Assembly (NCBI GenBank): GCA_963746845.1
Contig: CAVVCZ010000004.1
Span: 384,001-448,000, forward strand
Direction of reading: 5' to 3'
DNA: 64,000 bases
Source of the DNA: an uncultured Chloroflexia bacterium
Lineage (GTDB): Bacteria; Chloroflexota; Limnocylindria; Limnocylindrales; CSP1-4
Positions 32,022-38,064 of this stretch are shown here, piece after piece. The notes under the pieces are model-generated. The model was not told the origin of the DNA, ran no database searches, and saw only the letters and a list, made by a program, of their open reading frames with translations. Each line of letters starts with the position of its first letter. Positions within the stretch are counted from its first letter, which is position 1. The position numbers and the translations under genes are program-made.

Positions 32022-33332
32022 GTGACCACCAGCGGCACGTCCAAGGGACCCAAGGTTCCGTACCGCTGCTCCTTCTGCGGCAAGAGCCAGGAGCAGGTGC
32101 GGAAGCTCATCGCGGGCCAGGGCGTCTACATCTGCGACGAGTGCATCAACCTCTGCCAGGAGATCATCGAAGAGGAGATGCTCGAGGCGCCGAAGGCCAA
32201 GCCGGCGGTCGCCAAGCTCCCGAACCCCCGCCAGATCAAGTTCGCGCTCGACCAGTACGTGATCAGCCAGGAGCGGGCCAAGAAGGTCCTCTCCGTGGCG
32301 GTCTACAACCACTACAAGCGCGTGAACGCGGGTCACGCGGTCGACGAGGTGGAGCTCCAGAAGTCGAACGTCCTGCTCGTCGGGCCGACAGGCTCGGGCA
32401 AGACGCTCCTCGCGCAGACGCTCGCCCGGGTCCTTGACGTCCCGTTCTGCATCGCCGACGCCACGTCGCTGACCGAGGCCGGCTACGTCGGTGAGGACGT
32501 CGAGAACATCCTGCTGCGCCTGATCCAGGCGGCCGACTTCGACGTCGCCCGGGCCCAGCGCGGGATCATCTACATCGACGAGATCGACAAGATCGCCCGC
32601 AAGGCCGACAACCCGTCGATCACCCGCGACGTGTCCGGCGAGGGCGTCCAGCAGGCGCTCCTGAAGATCCTCGAGGGGACCGTCGCGAACGTCCCGCCGC
32701 AGGGCGGCCGGAAGCACCCCCACCAGGACTTCATCCAGATCGACACGACGAACGTGCTGTTCGTGTGCGGCGGCGCCTTCGACGGGCTCGAGAAGATCGT
32801 CGAGGAGCGCGTCGGCCGGCGGTCGATCGGGTTCGGCGCCGACGCCGGCGTCGCCAAGGCGGATCGCGGCAAGATCCTCGAGCGGCTGATGCCGGAGGAC
32901 CTGCTGAAGTTCGGGCTGATCCCGGAGTTCATCGGCCGGTTGCCGGTCATCGTGACGCTGACCGCGCTGACCGCGGAGGACCTCGTCCGGGTCCTGACCG
33001 AGCCGAAGAACGCGGTCACCCGCCAGTTCCAGAAGTTCCTCGGTCTGGACAAGGTGGAGCTCGTCTTCACCGAGAGCGCGCTCAAGGCCGCCGCCGACGT
33101 CGCGCTCGAGCGGAAGACCGGCGCCCGGGCGCTGCGGTCGATCGTCGAGGAGGCGCTCCTCGAGGTGATGTACGACATCCCGGAGCGCTCCGACGTCCGC
33201 AAATGCATCATCACCGAGGAGACGATCCGCGAAAGTCGGCTCCCGCTCCTCCTCACCAAGACCGAGGTCGACCGCGGCGTCGACGAGACGAACTACGAGG
33301 AGTGGCTCGCCGCCCGCGGCGAGACGGCGTAG
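32022..33332 (+). CDS. clpX: Clp protease ATP-binding subunit
   Basis: CSFCGK zinc finger, [19 protein letters not shown] and IGF loop. Confidence 0.97.
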
Positions 33333-33756
33333 GGCCGCGCTCCTTCGCGGTCTTCGCCCCGCCACCGCGGCCCCGCGACCGAGGCCCGACGCCCCGCGGC
33401 CTCCCGCACGTTCGGTCCGCCGCCTCCAGTCGCAATCCGTAGGCGCCCCATTCATGGCGCGAACTCAGGCCACTGCCGAAGCCGCTCGTTGAGGCCACTT
33501 GGCGGAGGCCGCAGTCGTCGGGCGACTGGCCAGGCCGCGAAGCCGCCAGCCGCGGTTCGCTCGCTCGCGCCCCTTCGACCCGACGCGCTCACCCCATGCG
33601 CGTTGTCTGGCCAACAGAGGATCTGACCCGATCGTCGCGCCGATCCTCGGTGCCTGAACCAAGTCCCGCGCGCACCCGATGCGCGCGTCGATCGATACCG
33701 GCTCGCCATCGCCACGTAAGTGGCAACGAAGCCCGGACAACGATCCTGGGGCGTGC

Positions 33757-34506
33757 ATGGCCCGTGTCAGACGCCCGAACCTTGGTCCCGAAGCCGCACG
33801 ACGCAACCGTCAGCAACTCGCTCGCGCTGGCGCGGAGCTGCGAGACGGCCGCACCCGCCGGCAGTTGACGCAGGCGGCGGCGGGCGAGCGTGCCGGCATC
33901 GGGCGAAGCATTGTGTCGCGCATCGAGCGTGGGTTGGGCGGATCCGTCCCGATGGATGCTTGGCAGCGGCTGGGTCTCGCGGTCGGTCGACCTCTGGTGG
34001 TGACGCTGCAACGCGACATCGGCGGCGAGACGGCCGACGCGGGTCACCTGGCGATCCAGGAGCTCGTCCTTCGACGTGGACGGGCCGCCGGATACGCGAC
34101 CTCGTTCGAGCTCCCGACCCGTCCGGCGGACCCGTGGCGCTCGGCCGACGTCGGCCTCGCATCGGCAGCTCGCCGGCAGCTGGTTCACGTCGAGTGCTGG
34201 AACACGATTGGTGACATCGGAGCCGCGGTCCGGTCGAGCACCCGCAAGCGCGCCGAGCTCCACGACCTCGCGATCGCCCGGTGGGGCACGGCCGCGACCA
34301 CCGGCCTCGTCTGGGTCGTCCGCGCGACAAGCCGGAACCGCGCCCTCGTGGCCCGCTATCCCGAGGTGTTCGCCCGCGCGTTCGGCGGTTCGTCCCGGCT
34401 CTGGCTCGACGCCCTGACGACCGGCAGCCGACCGCCGACGGACCCCGGCCTGGTGTGGTGCGACGTCGGTGCGACCCGCCTCAGCGCCTGGCGCCGCACC
34501 GGCTAG
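33757..34506 (+). CDS. XRE-family HTH fused to a restriction-endonuclease-like (PD-(D/E)xK-type) domain
   Basis: LTQAAAGERAGIGRSIVSRIERG HTH; C-terminal H..IQE, FE, SADV and VECWN pattern. The nuclease fold is inferred. Confidence 0.7.
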   Translation: MARVRRPNLGPEAARRNRQQLARAGAELRDGRTRRQLTQAAAGERAGIGRSIVSRIERGLGGSVPMDAWQRLGLAVGRPLVVTLQRDIGGETADAGHLAIQELVLRRGRAAGYATSFELPTRPADPWRSADVGLASAARRQLVHVECWNTIGDIGAAVRSSTRKRAELHDLAIARWGTAATTGLVWVVRATSRNRALVARYPEVFARAFGGSSRLWLDALTTGSRPPTDPGLVWCDVGATRLSAWRRTG

Positions 34507-34515
34507 GCTCGCGCG

Positions 34516-35088
34516 GTGAACCACGACGACCACGTCCGCCTGATCCGCGCCGGCGTCGAGGGCGCCGGTCCGCGCTGGCTCGAGCTCGGGGCGGGGGAGG
34601 GTGCTTTCACGCTCGCCCTCGCGGACCTGCTCGGCCCGAACGGGGCCATCACCGCCGTCGACCGGGACGGGGCCGCCCTCGAACGGCTGCGCGTGACGAT
34701 GAGCCGCCGTTTCCCGGCGACGACGCTGGACACCACGGTGATCGACTTCGGCCGCGCCCTCCCCGACGGCCCATTCGACGGCATCCTCGCCGCGAACTCA
34801 CTCCACTTCGTGACGGACCCGGCTGCCGTCCTCGGGCGGGCGGTCAGCGCGCTCGGGCCGGGCGGCCGGGTGATCGTCGTCGAGTACGACGCGGATCGCG
34901 GCAACCCCTGGGTCCCGCACCCGTTCTCCGCCCGTCGCTTCCCGGAGATCGCCGCTGCGGCCGGGCTGACCGAAGCGCGCGAGATCGGCCGCGTCCCCAG
35001 CCGGTTCCTGGGCGCGATCTACGCTGCCACGGCACGCCCGGACGGCCTGCTACACTCCCGGCCTCACGGTGAGGACCGAGACGAGTAG
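34516..35088 (+). CDS. Class I SAM-dependent methyltransferase
   Basis: ELGAGEG motif I, FDGILAANSLHFV and LGPGG. Confidence 0.85.
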   Translation: MNHDDHVRLIRAGVEGAGPRWLELGAGEGAFTLALADLLGPNGAITAVDRDGAALERLRVTMSRRFPATTLDTTVIDFGRALPDGPFDGILAANSLHFVTDPAAVLGRAVSALGPGGRVIVVEYDADRGNPWVPHPFSARRFPEIAAAAGLTEAREIGRVPSRFLGAIYAATARPDGLLHSRPHGEDRDE

Positions 35089-35298
35089 GCCCGGAACGGC
35101 CACGAAGCGAGCGCGGGATGGTGCGAGCCGCGCGGGTGCGCCGGGACCGAAGTCGCTCGCGAGCCGTGCGGCTGGCGCCCGATAGCGCGCCACGAGGCCA
35201 CCCGGACCCGGCGCCCGCGATGAGCGGACCGCCCCGGGCTGGCGAACCAGCAGGTGGTACCACGACCCCGTTCGTCCGCTGGACGAGCGGGGCGTTTC
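35062..35298 (+). promoter_or_regulatory. T-box riboswitch leader (Val)
   Basis: AGTA box 35084, GAA-GTC specifier (Val codon 35152-35154), T-box AGGTGGTACCACG 35252-35264, terminator CCCCGTTCGTCC/GGACGAGCGGGG plus GTTT; -10 TACACT at 35051. Confidence 0.9.
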
Positions 35299-35316
35299 GA
35301 TTCCGAGGCCCGACCC

Positions 35317-38064
35317 ATGACCGAGACCGCAGGCGACCGACCGACGACGACCGACCTTCCGAAGGCCTACCAGCCCGGCGAGGTCGAGGGCGCCGTCTAC
35401 GAGCGCTGGCTGGCGGCCGACGTCTTCGCGCCCGACGGACCTGGCTCCACGGCCGACCCCGCCGCCGAGACGTTCACGATCATCCAGCCGCCGCCGAACA
35501 TCACCGGCTCGCTCCACCTCGGCCACGCCCAGCGCGCCACCGTCGAGGACCTGATGATCCGGCACGCCCGGATGACCGGCCGGCCGACTCTTTTCCTGCC
35601 GGGGCTCGACCACGCGTCGATCGCCGCCCAGTTCGTCCTCGACGGGATCCTCGCCCGGGAGGGCGAGAGCCGCCAGAGCCTCGGCCGTGAGCGTTACCTC
35701 GAGCGGATGGGGGAGTTCGTGGCCGCGACGCGGGCGACCATCCTCGACCAGGAGCGCCGTCTCGGCGCGTCCTACGACTGGAGCCGGCTCCGGTACACGA
35801 TGGACGACGGCTCCGCCAAGGCGGTCCGAGTCGCGTTCAAGACGCTGTTCGATCGCGGGTTCGCGTACCGGACCGAGGCCCTCGTCAACTGGTGCCCCGG
35901 GTGCCGGACGAGCGTGAGCGATCTCGAGGTGATCTCGACCCCGGAGACCGGCACGCTCTGGTCGATCCGCTACCACCTGCTCGACGAGGCCACCGGCGAG
36001 CCCGACCCGGATCGGACGATCACGGTCGCGACGACCCGGCCCGAGACGATCCTCGGCGATACCGCGGTCGCCGTCCATCCGGACGACGACCGCTACGCGG
36101 ACGTCGTCGGTCGCCGTGTACGGATTCCCTTCGTCGAGCGCGACGTCCCGATCATCGCCGACGAGGTCGTCGACCGCGCCTTCGGGACCGGCGCCCTGAA
36201 GATCACCCCGGCCCATGACCACGACGACCACGAGACCGGAGTCCGCCACGGCCTGCCGATGCCGACGGTCCTCGACGATGCGGCCGCGGTCGTCGACACC
36301 GGGACGCGCTATGACGGGATGGACCGGTACGCGGCACGGACGGCGATCCTCGCGGATCTCGCGGCCCGTGGCGACCTCGCCGGTGAGAGGCCACACGAGA
36401 TGGTGATCGGCCGCTGCCAGCGCTCCGACGACGTCATCGAGCCACGCCTCAAGACCCAGTGGTTCATCCGGACGAGGCCCCTCGCGGCCGCCGCCCTCGA
36501 GGCGACACGGAGCGGCCGGACGCGGATCGTGCCGCCCGTCTTCGAGAAGACGTGGGTGCACTGGATGACGACGATCCGCGACTGGAACGTCTCGCGTCAG
36601 CTCTGGTGGGGCCACCGGATCCCCGCCTGGTACTGCCCGGACGGTCACGTCACGGTCAGCGCGGAGGAGGGTGGGCCCACCGCCTGCGAGACCTGCGGCC
36701 GGCCCGCGGCGGACCTCCGCCAGGACCCGGATATCTTCGACACGTGGTTCAGCTCGGGGCTGTGGCCGTTCTCGACCCTCGGCTGGCCCGACGACACGCC
36801 CGACTACCGACGGTTCTACCCGACGTCGGTGATGGAGACCGGCTACGACATCATCTTCTTCTGGGTCGCCCGGATGATGATGCTCGGGATCGAGCTGACC
36901 GGCGACGCGCCCTTCCACACGATCGCGCTGTCCGGGCTGATCCGGGATCCGCTCGGCAAGAAGATGTCGAAGACGACGGGCAACGTGGTCGACCCGCTCG
37001 CGGTCATGGCCGAGTCCGGCGCCGACGCTCTCCGGTTCGCCCTGATCCACGGCGCCACCCCGGGGCAGGACCAGCGATTCGGGTCGCAGAAGCTGGAGCT
37101 CGCCCGGAACTTCGCGAACAAGCTCTGGAACGCCGCGCGCTTCGTGCTCGGCGCGCGCCCGGCATCCCTTGCCCCGGACGCCGGGCGGCCCGCGGCCCTC
37201 GACGACGCCCTCCTCGGGCCGACCGAGCGCTGGATCCGCTCTCGTGCGGCGGCGGCGACGGCGGCGGTCGACCGCGGGATCGCGGAGTACCAGTTCGCCG
37301 AGGTCACCCGCGCGCTCCACGACGGCATCTGGTCCGAGTTCTGCGACTGGGGCATTGAGCTTGCCAAGGTCCACCTCGCAGACGACTCCCTGTCCGACGA
37401 CGAGCGCGCCGCCACGTGGTGGACCCTCGTCGACGCGCTCGATACCTATCTGCGGCTCCTCCACCCGGTCATGCCGTTCGTGACCGAGGCGATCTGGGGC
37501 TCGCTTCCGCACCGTGCCGGCGACCCCGAGCTGCTGATGGTCGCCCGCTGGCCGTCGCCAGGTGACGGGGCGGACGCGGCCGTCGATGCCCGCTTCACCC
37601 AGATCGTCGACACGATCGTCGCGATCCGCAACGCGCGGGCCACGGCCGAGGCGCCCGCGGCCGGGTGGCTGGAGACGCATCTTGCCCTGCCCACGGATGC
37701 GTTCGACGGGTTCGAGGCGATCGCGCCGGCGATCGCCCGGCTGTCGAGGGCCCGACCGCTGGTGCTCCATCGCGACGCAACCGAGCTGCCCCGACCGGGC
37801 GGGGCGCTCGAGATCGTCCTCCCATCGGGCGACATCGAGGCGACGGTGATCCTGGCCGCGGCCGGCGATGGCGTCGCGGTCGACCGGGCGCGGCTCGAGA
37901 AGGAGCTTGGCGAAGCGGAAGGCCACCTGACCGCGGCGCTGGCGCGGCTCGCGAACCCCGCGTTCACCGAACGGGCGCCCACCGCGGTCGTCGACGGCGC
38001 GCGGACTCGGGCGGCCGAGCTGTCCGAGCAGGTCGAGCGACTGCGAGCGCGCCTGGGTCGCTAG
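35317..38064 (+). CDS. valS: Valine--tRNA ligase
   Basis: PPPNITGSLHLGH, DWNVSRQLWWGH, DTWFSS, KMSKT and C-terminal coiled coil. Confidence 0.97.
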   Translation: MTETAGDRPTTTDLPKAYQPGEVEGAVYERWLAADVFAPDGPGSTADPAAETFTIIQPPPNITGSLHLGHAQRATVEDLMIRHARMTGRPTLFLPGLDHASIAAQFVLDGILAREGESRQSLGRERYLERMGEFVAATRATILDQERRLGASYDWSRLRYTMDDGSAKAVRVAFKTLFDRGFAYRTEALVNWCPGCRTSVSDLEVISTPETGTLWSIRYHLLDEATGEPDPDRTITVATTRPETILGDTAVAVHPDDDRYADVVGRRVRIPFVERDVPIIADEVVDRAFGTGALKITPAHDHDDHETGVRHGLPMPTVLDDAAAVVDTGTRYDGMDRYAARTAILADLAARGDLAGERPHEMVIGRCQRSDDVIEPRLKTQWFIRTRPLAAAALEATRSGRTRIVPPVFEKTWVHWMTTIRDWNVSRQLWWGHRIPAWYCPDGHVTVSAEEGGPTACETCGRPAADLRQDPDIFDTWFSSGLWPFSTLGWPDDTPDYRRFYPTSVMETGYDIIFFWVARMMMLGIELTGDAPFHTIALSGLIRDPLGKKMSKTTGNVVDPLAVMAESGADALRFALIHGATPGQDQRFGSQKLELARNFANKLWNAARFVLGARPASLAPDAGRPAALDDALLGPTERWIRSRAAAATAAVDRGIAEYQFAEVTRALHDGIWSEFCDWGIELAKVHLADDSLSDDERAATWWTLVDALDTYLRLLHPVMPFVTEAIWGSLPHRAGDPELLMVARWPSPGDGADAAVDARFTQIVDTIVAIRNARATAEAPAAGWLETHLALPTDAFDGFEAIAPAIARLSRARPLVLHRDATELPRPGGALEIVLPSGDIEATVILAAAGDGVAVDRARLEKELGEAEGHLTAALARLANPAFTERAPTAVVDGARTRAAELSEQVERLRARLGR

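Follow-up and report, generated by a model that had tools for sequence, protein, structure and literature searches.

A Predicted HTH/Nuclease-Derived Regulator Gene with a Co-Varying Upstream Inverted Pair in Uncultured Limnocylindrales (Chloroflexota)

Introduction

Many regulators of the XRE/Cro-C1 type repress their own promoters, and ClgR controls the clp genes in actinobacteria. Gene expression can also be set by leaders that hide the start codon, such as RNA thermometers and the expression platforms of translational riboswitches, and the repressors that loop the DNA between two operators are a useful comparator. The gene described here, which encodes a protein of 249 amino acids (aa) with an XRE-type helix-turn-helix (HTH) domain followed by a domain resembling the PD-(D/E)xK nucleases, can be compared with all of these systems. 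It follows clpX in the genome of an uncultured Chloroflexota bacterium (GenBank assembly GCA_963746845.1, hereafter G000), within a stretch of 64,000 nt that we call the window (G000 contig C4:384001-448000); positions are counted from its first letter and the features lie on its + strand, unless otherwise stated.

We favour, with moderate confidence, the reading of this locus as a vertically inherited gene for an HTH/nuclease-derived regulator, accompanied by a conserved upstream control module. The first-pass annotation of the window had proposed a self-contained mobile or selfish cassette, with a structured leader and possibly a cognate non-coding RNA, inserted between clpX and the valS region. 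The comparison of gene order in related genomes corrects the mobile-cassette reading, and the alignment of the upstream regions brings out an inverted pair of sequence blocks that had been missed.

Results and Discussion

An Inverted Pair Ending at the Start Codon

The region from the clpX stop codon to the ATG of the XRE gene at 33757 spans 424 nt (33333..33756) and, as first described, appears to be non-coding: no codon-phase GC signal, no tRNA and no Rfam match at E ≤ 1 were found in it. By a crude gene caller, the gap upstream of 55 orthologues had a median length of 302 nt, and the intervals of 408 other neighbouring gene pairs in these loci one of 80.5 nt. The first-pass annotation had counted the 424-nt region among the longest non-coding stretches of the window, in which a crude caller leaves ten larger uncalled gaps of 588-1612 nt. 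The orthologous loci compared were 80 from named metagenome-assembled genomes (MAGs) and that of the genus relative G016, 81 in total; together with the locus of the window, 30 loci are linked to clpX. Most of the gap is unalignable spacer, poorly aligned even with G016, in which three parts are conserved, namely the last ~45 nt, a weaker block near −100 and a block ~150-215 nt upstream of the gene.

The most conserved portion of the upstream region is a 27-nt proximal arm that ends with the ATG (33733..33759; columns 309-335 of the 30-locus alignment). The distal block, visible only after aligning all 30 loci over 236 nt, is the reverse complement of the proximal one and occupies 33584..33610 in the window (columns 76-102). 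This inverted copy lies ~150 nt upstream of the proximal block in G000 and ~125-190 nt upstream across loci. The two arms of G000 form 19 Watson-Crick and 2 G-U pairs over the 27 positions, and a repeat search in this genome reported the inverted pair 33587-33610/33733-33756, with 75% complementarity.

When the block from −30 to +3 of each locus was compared with its own upstream region, the inverted match scored on average 9.7, the direct match 7.2 and shuffled regions 6.9, and the inverted orientation outscored the direct one in 24/30 loci. In a swap test on 57 loci, the own block scored 9.93 versus 7.07 for the blocks of other loci, ranking first without ties in 13 of them and third or better in 23. 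The orthologues unlinked to clpX share this property in part, as 12 of 27 reached a score of at least 10 for their own inverted match.

The 27-pair register was set by eye from 10 strong cases and then put on a MAFFT alignment unfitted to structure. Of the 802 cells in the 30 loci, 71.7% pair, compared to 63.3 ± 0.9% in shuffles (0/500 as high) and 28-45% in slid registers; because the loci share ancestry and also supplied the register, the shuffle counts should not be taken as probabilities, and the slid registers are the fairer control. Compensatory changes on both sides were observed at 20/27 pairs (shuffles 15.0 ± 1.5; 0/500) and in 91 cells (shuffles 44.5 ± 5.3), and the covariation score was 0.285, with 0.168 in shuffles and at most 0.116 in slid registers. 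The long-range helix, with 9-23 pairs, is present in the minimum-free-energy fold of 24/30 loci, with a mean z-score of only −1.33; at one locus (L036, z −2.99) it is also found in the centroid structure. The other paralogues in G000 had no significant inverted pair, that of the closest paralogue being marginal. Judged from these alignments, the inverted pair is real and co-varies across the 30 orthologous loci, and it probably controls the expression of the XRE gene.

Other Elements of the Upstream Region

The four hairpins listed in the first-pass annotation are present, CAGTCG/CGACTG at 33512-33528, GAGGATC/GATCCTC at 33617-33648, CGCGCGCA/TGCGCGCG at 33667-33687 and GCCAC-GTAA-GTGGC at 33711-33724, but they are at the level expected by chance in dinucleotide shuffles and are not conserved, and the picture of a hairpin-rich structure did not hold. 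Perfect hairpins with a stem of at least 6 bp were 9 versus 5.2 ± 2.9 in the shuffles (38/300 reach 9), and those with a stem of at least 7 bp were 3 versus 1.9 (90/300 as high); the folding z-score of the whole 424 nt was −1.96 on the + strand and −2.75 on the − strand. Thus, of the co-variation sought upstream, a pairing element does exist, but it is none of the listed hairpins. In the proximal 150 nt, RNAalifold returned just a 4-bp CAUG/CAUG helix (−1.23 kcal/mol) without co-variation, and Rfam 15 gave no match in the arm-bounded leaders of six orthologous loci; with neither a consensus fold there nor an Rfam match, the suggestion of a cognate non-coding RNA is not upheld, nor did any of the analyses link the protein to RNA. 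The lone intergenic Rfam hit was a weak sul1 match (L092 830-880, E 0.62) upstream of the arms of that locus.

The perfect 8-bp palindrome CGCGCGCA-N5-TGCGCGCG (33667..33687) falls within the weaker conserved block around −100. Two copies of a 19-nt near-palindromic element are found, in direct orientation, at 33584-33602 and 33667-33685, 83 nt apart and 89% identical; the former copy sits in the distal arm and the latter may be a third related site. This third copy is clear in G000 and plausible by eye in the alignments of other loci; since the direct-orientation scores are 7.2 versus 6.9 in shuffled regions, no claim is made for a third block copy near −100. Palindromes at −135..−66 were slightly enriched (best arm 5.0 versus 4.48 ± 0.18) and were discarded, their positions and sequences being inconsistent.

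A motif TAAG-N7-GAAG, conserved across orthologues, is located at −40 (33717..33731). It was found in forward orientation near −40 in 31/70 orthologue upstream regions and reversed in 2, anywhere in 400 nt; in the clpX-linked loci TAAG is exactly at −40 in 25/30, with TGA at that place in one more, and GAAG is near −29. Weaker copies precede three G000 paralogues. From its position and conservation, the motif is possibly a promoter or transcript-start element. Neither the TAA as a stop codon nor TAAG as a textbook −10 box fits well, and an upstream small open reading frame (ORF) ending at this TAA was rejected, as in most loci that frame is without a start codon and stays open for anything from 0 to 145 codons; no conserved small ORF was found upstream of the orthologues.

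The minimum-free-energy fold opens with a 7-bp hairpin just past the clpX stop codon (33333..33352), possibly the clpX terminator; a consensus terminator scan found none.

The XRE Protein: HTH Domain and Nuclease-Fold Domain

The XRE ORF spans 33757..34506 (249 aa plus stop). An ATG was found at the tblastn-extrapolated start in 29/29 clpX-linked loci; at three loci (L050, L065, L075) the alignment puts the start elsewhere. The in-frame ATG at 33679, inside the palindrome 33667-33687, is not the conserved start and was discarded. The protein recorded for this gene has 184 aa (P0004; 100% identity, 74% coverage), hence its start falls downstream of the HTH; since the N-terminus is conserved, we take the full ORF as 249 aa. 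The Atlas clusters of Chloroflexota 'hypothetical proteins' of 176-185 aa look like the same truncated calls without the HTH.

At residues 25-76 (33829..33984) Pfam recognises an XRE-type HTH, HTH_31 (E 5.2e-8), with 33.5 bits above a cut-off of 27, and HTH_3, with 24.3 bits and a cut-off of 23; both families are matched by 39/39 family members, and the HTH read in the first-pass annotation is confirmed. A full-length AlphaFold2 model, built on 39 diverse relatives, had a mean predicted local distance difference test (pLDDT) score of 90.6 and consists of a five-helix HTH followed by an alpha-beta-beta-beta-alpha-beta core. The modelled N-terminal helices (9-34, 39-46, 50-57, 66-75) are matched by C.AhdI (Z 10.6, root-mean-square deviation 1.8 Å over 64 residues), HipB (Z 10.5) and ClgR (Z 10.4), and profile searches against PDB sequences returned C.BclI (2.9e-10) and ClgR (1.1e-7). 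Thus, the N-terminal domain, as modelled, is a five-helix lambda-repressor-like fold. Searches with the XRE protein in the sequences of solved structures, NCBIfam, PHROGs and PADLOC gave HTH matches only, those in PADLOC being weak.

The C-terminal domain (residues 88-249; 34018..34503) has no covering Pfam family: 39 members matched HTH families only and 7 paralogues had no Pfam cover of this domain, the sole trace being a sub-threshold MmcB-like match (E 0.035) in one paralogue. When this domain was modelled by itself from 34 sequences, it reached a pLDDT of 93.2 and a predicted TM-score of 0.89; in the full-length model it has helices at 95-110 and 154-176 and strands at 114-120, 129-136, 141-148 and 181-189. 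In the VIA-align comparison, the top match was the C-terminal domain of Upx (9wuf; Z 9.7, 124 aligned), followed by AF1548 (1y88; Z 9.0), NucS/EndoMS (2vld; Z 8.8) and SPO1766 (Z 8.7), and nearly all of the 50 listed rows have a restriction-endonuclease fold; XisH (2okf) was matched with Z 9.7 by the full-length model, and Foldseek returned the same kinds of proteins with weak E-values (best 2.7e-3). The PD-(D/E)xK fold of this domain is, therefore, confidently modelled, in line with the core recognised by eye in the first-pass annotation.

The active-site region (34147..34203) holds D131 in strand 2 (34147-34149) and, in strand 3, E146 (34192-34194), C147, W148 (34198-34200) and N149, which read V-E-C-W-N, whereas the distant paralogues of the same genome show in the same columns V-E-V-K-S, V-E-A-K-T and similar, that is, the canonical (D/E)-x-K. 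The full catalytic motif, Asp plus (D/E)-x-K, is thus incomplete in the XRE protein, position 148 being Trp, as the first-pass annotation had noticed. Eight positions are invariant in the 34 diverse sequences: D94 and H97 in helix 1, E118 in strand 1, D131, E146, K164 in helix 2, R195 and G231. The Upx publication gives the active site of that protein as D1161, E1176 and K1178 (PMC13099982). One paralogue of the XRE protein (L006) matches positions 1120-1177 of the PADLOC Upx profile, the D...ExK region, with E 6.5e-5. The E-x-K paralogues are probably real nucleases; the XRE protein has the fold and the ancestry of the nucleases and would have lost their catalysis. 'Nuclease-derived regulator', one of the names proposed in the first-pass annotation, is a fair description of a PD-(D/E)xK fold in which the catalytic Lys is replaced.

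Family Range, Paralogues and Tree

A word-indexed search, with 8000 candidates scored, returned 1590 proteins at E ≤ 0.001, the best being 61-79% identical and nearly all 247-262 aa long; an exhaustive search of representatives gave 576 clusters at E ≤ 0.001, of which 83 reached E ≤ 1e-30. The search for fused or longer forms among longer proteins returned a single relative of 448 aa, hence the two-domain protein stands alone. Full-text searches, judged mostly from abstracts, found no literature on the XRE-HTH/PD-(D/E)xK family.

In a draw of 301 Chloroflexota genomes, strong full-length matches were present in 15/16 and 14/15 genomes of two families of the window's class; beyond the class, the best E-values were only 1e-11 to 1e-13 (match extent not inspected). 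Full-length members were seen in the window's own class alone (Candidatus Limnocylindrales, Chloroflexota), and at E ≤ 0.001 the family was absent from 16/16 small genomes of the same order (G025-G040, family f2; 1.0-1.4 Mb, 84-93% complete). The genus tally includes one genome, G010, that enters no other claim; without it, the count is 23/23.

The family numbers about 12 divergent copies in each genome; by a hidden Markov model (HMM) of it, G000 has 12 full-length copies, one copy split between frames and 4 HTH-only matches. The paralogues are 26-44% identical to the XRE protein and lie in unrelated contexts; the multiple copies, the number of which the first-pass annotation proposed to check, are diverged paralogues, not repeated insertions. 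Three E-x-K paralogues are within ~80 kb on one contig (C6: 207502-208350, 269613-270380, 284022-284849). In the split paralogue (C8:67013-67968, − strand) the HTH and the C-terminal domain are in two overlapping frames, the probable result of a frameshift that made it a pseudogene or else of an assembly error; upstream of it is a weak copy of the TAAG-N7-GAAG leader.

Position 148 was compared in a FastTree tree of 115 rows, 7 of which are duplicates of G000 paralogues and from which the G010 locus was left out: the residue there is Trp in 91 rows, Lys in 13, Val in 6, Glu in 4 and Leu in one. The E-x-K branch is apart from a single branch in which Lys is changed to W (91), V (6) or L (1), and the tree also holds a group of 4 rows with E-A-E-T. 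This topology is consistent with a single replacement of the Lys in the clade of the XRE gene (E-C-W-N), in which the acidic residues remained invariant.

A Resident Gene in a Variable Slot Downstream of clpX

The gene order at the locus is tRNA-Leu, tig, clpP, clpX, the 424-nt gap, the XRE ORF, a gene for a class I S-adenosylmethionine (SAM) methyltransferase and valS. In 29/81 loci the orthologue comes immediately after clpX, from which 205-706 nt separate it, and valS is frequently downstream, after a variable stretch. In another part of the clade the recurring context is an aldehyde dehydrogenase gene upstream and a convergent amidohydrolase gene downstream; neighbours of other orthologues include genes for aldehyde dehydrogenase, amidohydrolase, histidine kinase and ABC ATPase.

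Five relatives of the genus with long contigs were compared (G016, G012, G009, G004 and G005). Their clpX is close to that of G000, 98.6% identical in G016 and 91-93% in four further genus genomes. G016 keeps the order clpP-clpX-XRE-methyltransferase-valS, whereas G012 and G009 have a clean empty site, with the clpX stop codon ~35 nt from the methyltransferase start. In G004 the clpX-methyltransferase gap is 587 nt and contains a different, hydrophobic ORF of 183 codons; no remnant of the XRE gene was recognised in it (best HMM E 0.12). In G005 there are 6.2 kb in the slot after clpX. Since four genus relatives are without the gene, it is dispensable. In other MAGs, reverse-strand genes of assorted kinds were observed between clpX and valS, and in this slot (window 33333-35253; L028-L032 and L033-L112) the XRE gene occurs with or without the methyltransferase gene, depending on the genome.

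That the gene had been inserted here, as first proposed, thus has the empty sites of G012 and G009 on its side, but the adjacency to clpX in 29/81 loci makes loss elsewhere at least as likely. We read the gene as resident and dispensable, occupying a variable slot downstream of clpX, and as more probably lost from some lineages than acquired in this one; the supposed insertion is better described as a presence/absence polymorphism. Comparing G000 with G016, the identity is 63% for XRE, 67% for the methyltransferase, 85% for valS and 98.6% for clpX; as the methyltransferase and valS are also far more diverged than clpX, the low identity of XRE needs no replacement event. The mean p-distance among loci is 0.39 for the XRE protein versus 0.145 for clpX, and the distances of the two are weakly correlated (Mantel r 0.24; 11/2000 permutations as high). 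On the evidence of sequence and synteny, the XRE gene is read as a vertically inherited chromosomal member of a multigene family.

As to codon usage, the GC content at the third codon position (GC3) of the XRE ORF is 0.72 in codons 1-87 and 0.88 in codons 88-249, with 0.91-0.97 in tig, clpP, clpX, the methyltransferase gene and valS; the excess of A/T-ending codons in the 5′ part, described in the first-pass annotation, is therefore real. The mean GC3 of 29 orthologues is 0.84 in both parts, which makes the low 5′ value peculiar to the G000 copy.

A Possible Mechanism of Control

In the mechanism that we propose, the XRE protein would be a sequence-specific DNA-binding regulator, the nuclease-derived domain of which may serve for oligomerisation or for the binding of a metal or ligand, with at most residual activity. 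The control module, set in a freely drifting spacer, would comprise the 27-nt block including the ATG, its inverted copy and the TAAG-N7-GAAG motif at −40. We consider it almost an even possibility that the two blocks are operator sites of the XRE protein itself, which would bind them and repress its own gene, perhaps through a DNA loop. More tentatively, the two blocks may pair and hide the start codon in transcripts started upstream, including read-through from clpX. The two mechanisms are not mutually exclusive.

The recognition helix of the HTH varies together with the block: helices reading G-R-M-x-x-S-R go with the variant AACATG-N-CGATCATG and those reading S-Q-S-x-I-S-R with GCATGCAGCGACTATG, and the helix of G000, G-R-S-I-V-S-R, goes with a block variant of its own. 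This pairing fits the prediction of protein-operator co-evolution. In G000, an nhmmer profile of the proximal block recovered the site itself (E 3.2e-6) and, immediately before three paralogues, weak matches; a second profile, made from −22..+3 of 18 loci with the commonest variant, found in the 8-kb loci the own sites and the weak upstream inverted copies.

Several observations weigh against our interpretation. The recognition-helix groups are also clades, hence their link to the block variants is confounded by phylogeny. The profiles of the proximal block returned no sites near clpP, tig or other genes in G000 and 18 loci, so that no regulon is known, and a consensus scan found no sigma-70-like promoter. 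The register was tested on the same, related sequences from which it was derived. The pair is weaker in G000, the minimum-free-energy fold of which uses 0 pairs of the aligned arms, preferring local hairpins and the pairing of 33563-33573 with ~33745-33758 (z −2.41 for 33560-33775). In the fixed register there are 75 G-U versus 39 A-C cells, but 21 of the G-U come from one conserved pair; leaving out this pair, opposite the U of AUG, the count is 54 versus 39 (p 0.15), and with a free register the split is 26 versus 21 loci. Without a clear strand signal in these counts, the RNA and DNA readings are not separable. Finally, D131, E146, E118, D94 and H97 are all invariant, which speaks for a functional metal site and hence possibly for retained catalysis, although the Lys is lost.

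This last point leads to the strongest competitor, an active nuclease guided by the HTH, which would cut at or near the recognised sites, despite the change of Lys to Trp, in defence, repair or DNA rearrangement. Active PD-(D/E)xK enzymes without the lysine exist, such as BglII and BamHI, and the closest solved matches (the Upx C-terminal domain, NucS, Can2) are active; the distant paralogues keep the full E-x-K, K164 is invariant like the acidic residues, and the gene is patchy across the genus. On the other side, a bulky Trp, with few Val or Leu, is conserved throughout the clade, more like a loss that became fixed than a conservative exchange; neither a partner methyltransferase nor an immunity gene or defence neighbourhood was found with the gene, its neighbours being housekeeping or metabolic, PADLOC gives only weak HTH matches and the synteny beside clpX is stable, so that we regard an active nuclease as unlikely. 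A mobile or selfish cassette, consisting of the gene and its structured leader, inserted between clpX and the methyltransferase/valS genes, would account for the clean empty site in G012 and G009, the other contents of the slot in G004 and G005, the many copies of the family, a GC3 lower than that of the neighbours and an orthologue only 63% identical where clpX is 98.6%. Nevertheless, synteny largely refutes it: the orthologues form a single clade and follow clpX in 29 other genomes as well, the paralogues have conserved contexts of their own and are too diverged from the XRE protein (26-44% identity) to be recent transpositions, and the methyltransferase and valS are also well below clpX in identity. 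Moreover, a repeat search and the comparison of the junctions revealed no direct, inverted or terminal repeats and no target duplications, and no recombinase gene is near the XRE gene, just as the first-pass annotation had reported no transposase or integrase; we hold this explanation to be very improbable.

Two further explanations concern the upstream region. It might encode an independent small RNA or small protein, the true partner of the gene, for example in a toxin/antitoxin pair, as the unusual length of the gap and the folding z-score of −2.41 for 33560-33775 could indicate; but outside the arms, the −100 block and the −40 motif the spacer is conserved neither in sequence nor in length, most loci have no started open frame ending at the conserved TAA, there is no coding phase signal, no Rfam match was found in the window and six orthologous loci, and RNAalifold gave only the 4-bp helix in the proximal 150 nt, which leaves this idea little credit. 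Alternatively, the inverted pair could flank an invertible promoter segment, acting as a phase-variation switch: the repeats are 15-27 nt long, ~150 nt apart and alike within each locus. However, the TAAG-N7-GAAG motif is forward near −40 in 31/70 assemblies and reversed in only 2, where its location is no more than chance would give, the gene has no recombinase next to it, and, since the proximal arm holds the start codon, inversion would break the 5′ end of the gene; such a switch is extremely improbable. Our preferred interpretation remains that of a vertically inherited regulator gene with its own control module.

A bolder version of it can be imagined, in which the co-varying pair is an undescribed cis-regulatory leader that hides the start codon in clpPX read-through transcripts and is opened or bypassed under the control of the protein, and the protein is the proteostasis/stress regulator of this class, a counterpart of ClgR made from a disarmed nuclease. 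We regard this version as speculative and, taken whole, quite unlikely. The fixed place after clpP-clpX in many genomes may point to a link with proteostasis.

Neighbouring Genes

The clpX gene (32022..33332) matches Pfam AAA_2 (1.6e-34) and zf-C4_ClpX (1.4e-19). The methyltransferase gene (34516..35088; Pfam Methyltransf_12/31/25/11) begins 9 nt past the XRE stop codon; where G012 and G009 have the empty site, it comes right after clpX, and it is a resident gene outside the XRE unit. The enzyme is of the small-molecule type. Upstream of valS (35254-38064), a sub-threshold match to the T-box leader was observed at 35069-35164 (24.2 bits, E 0.016; gathering score 93), and similar matches before valS were found at L046 4776-4883, L064 5520-5616 and L028 4154-4249 (36.8, 29.6 and 21.8 bits, respectively). 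The recurrence of these sub-threshold matches suggests a divergent valS T-box leader in this lineage.

Comparison with Known Systems

Fusions of HTH and nuclease domains and autoregulated XRE proteins are both common, and the gene itself is, therefore, unsurprising. What is new is a domain family uncurated and without a Pfam model, confined to a poorly known class of uncultured Chloroflexota, from which public gene calls often drop the HTH. The gene would code for a so far uncharacterised regulator particular to this lineage, and its control element would be new.

The XRE protein shares the five-helix HTH of the XRE/Cro-C1 regulators (C.AhdI, C.BclI, HipB/HigA, ClgR), but these are single-domain proteins of ~70-120 aa or carry other C-terminal domains, whereas the XRE protein adds a nuclease-fold domain of 160 aa. 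Compared to controllers of restriction-modification systems and type II antitoxins, the XRE gene has no adjacent restriction-modification genes or toxin partner. The likeness to ClgR consists in the HTH and in the position of the gene after clpP-clpX; the architecture is different, and no copy of the conserved block was found upstream of clpP or tig in G000 and 18 loci.

With the PD-(D/E)xK nucleases Upx, AF1548, NucS and XisH the protein has in common the core, with the Asp in strand 2 and the Glu in strand 3; the sequence identity is only 10-15%, the Lys is Trp in the clade of the XRE gene, and the domain contexts of the matched nucleases differ from its HTH fusion. Upx, by its PADLOC profile and its publication (PMC13099982), is a three-domain defence protein of 1271 positions with two nuclease domains; the XRE protein, of 249 aa, matches only the C-terminal nuclease core and is not a Upx protein. 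The clear transition from E-x-K members to a clade without the Lys would illustrate, in nature, the conversion of a nuclease to another role. With clean junctions and a position conserved in 29/81 loci, the locus also differs from mobile elements and homing-endonuclease cassettes.

Finally, like the leaders that hide a start codon, the inverted pair is conserved and complementary, with one arm lying over the ATG and the preceding 24 nt, and, like the sites of looping repressors, it consists of two related blocks ~150 bp apart around a putative promoter. Unlike riboswitches and thermometers, its predicted helix is long-range, with up to 23 pairs closing an unconserved loop of 125-190 nt, and, unlike riboswitches, the XRE leader has no Rfam match and no evident ligand-binding core or Shine-Dalgarno sequence. 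The long-range start-codon element of the Lys-less clade, which belongs to no known RNA family, is thus a candidate for a new type of leader or for a looping pair of operators.

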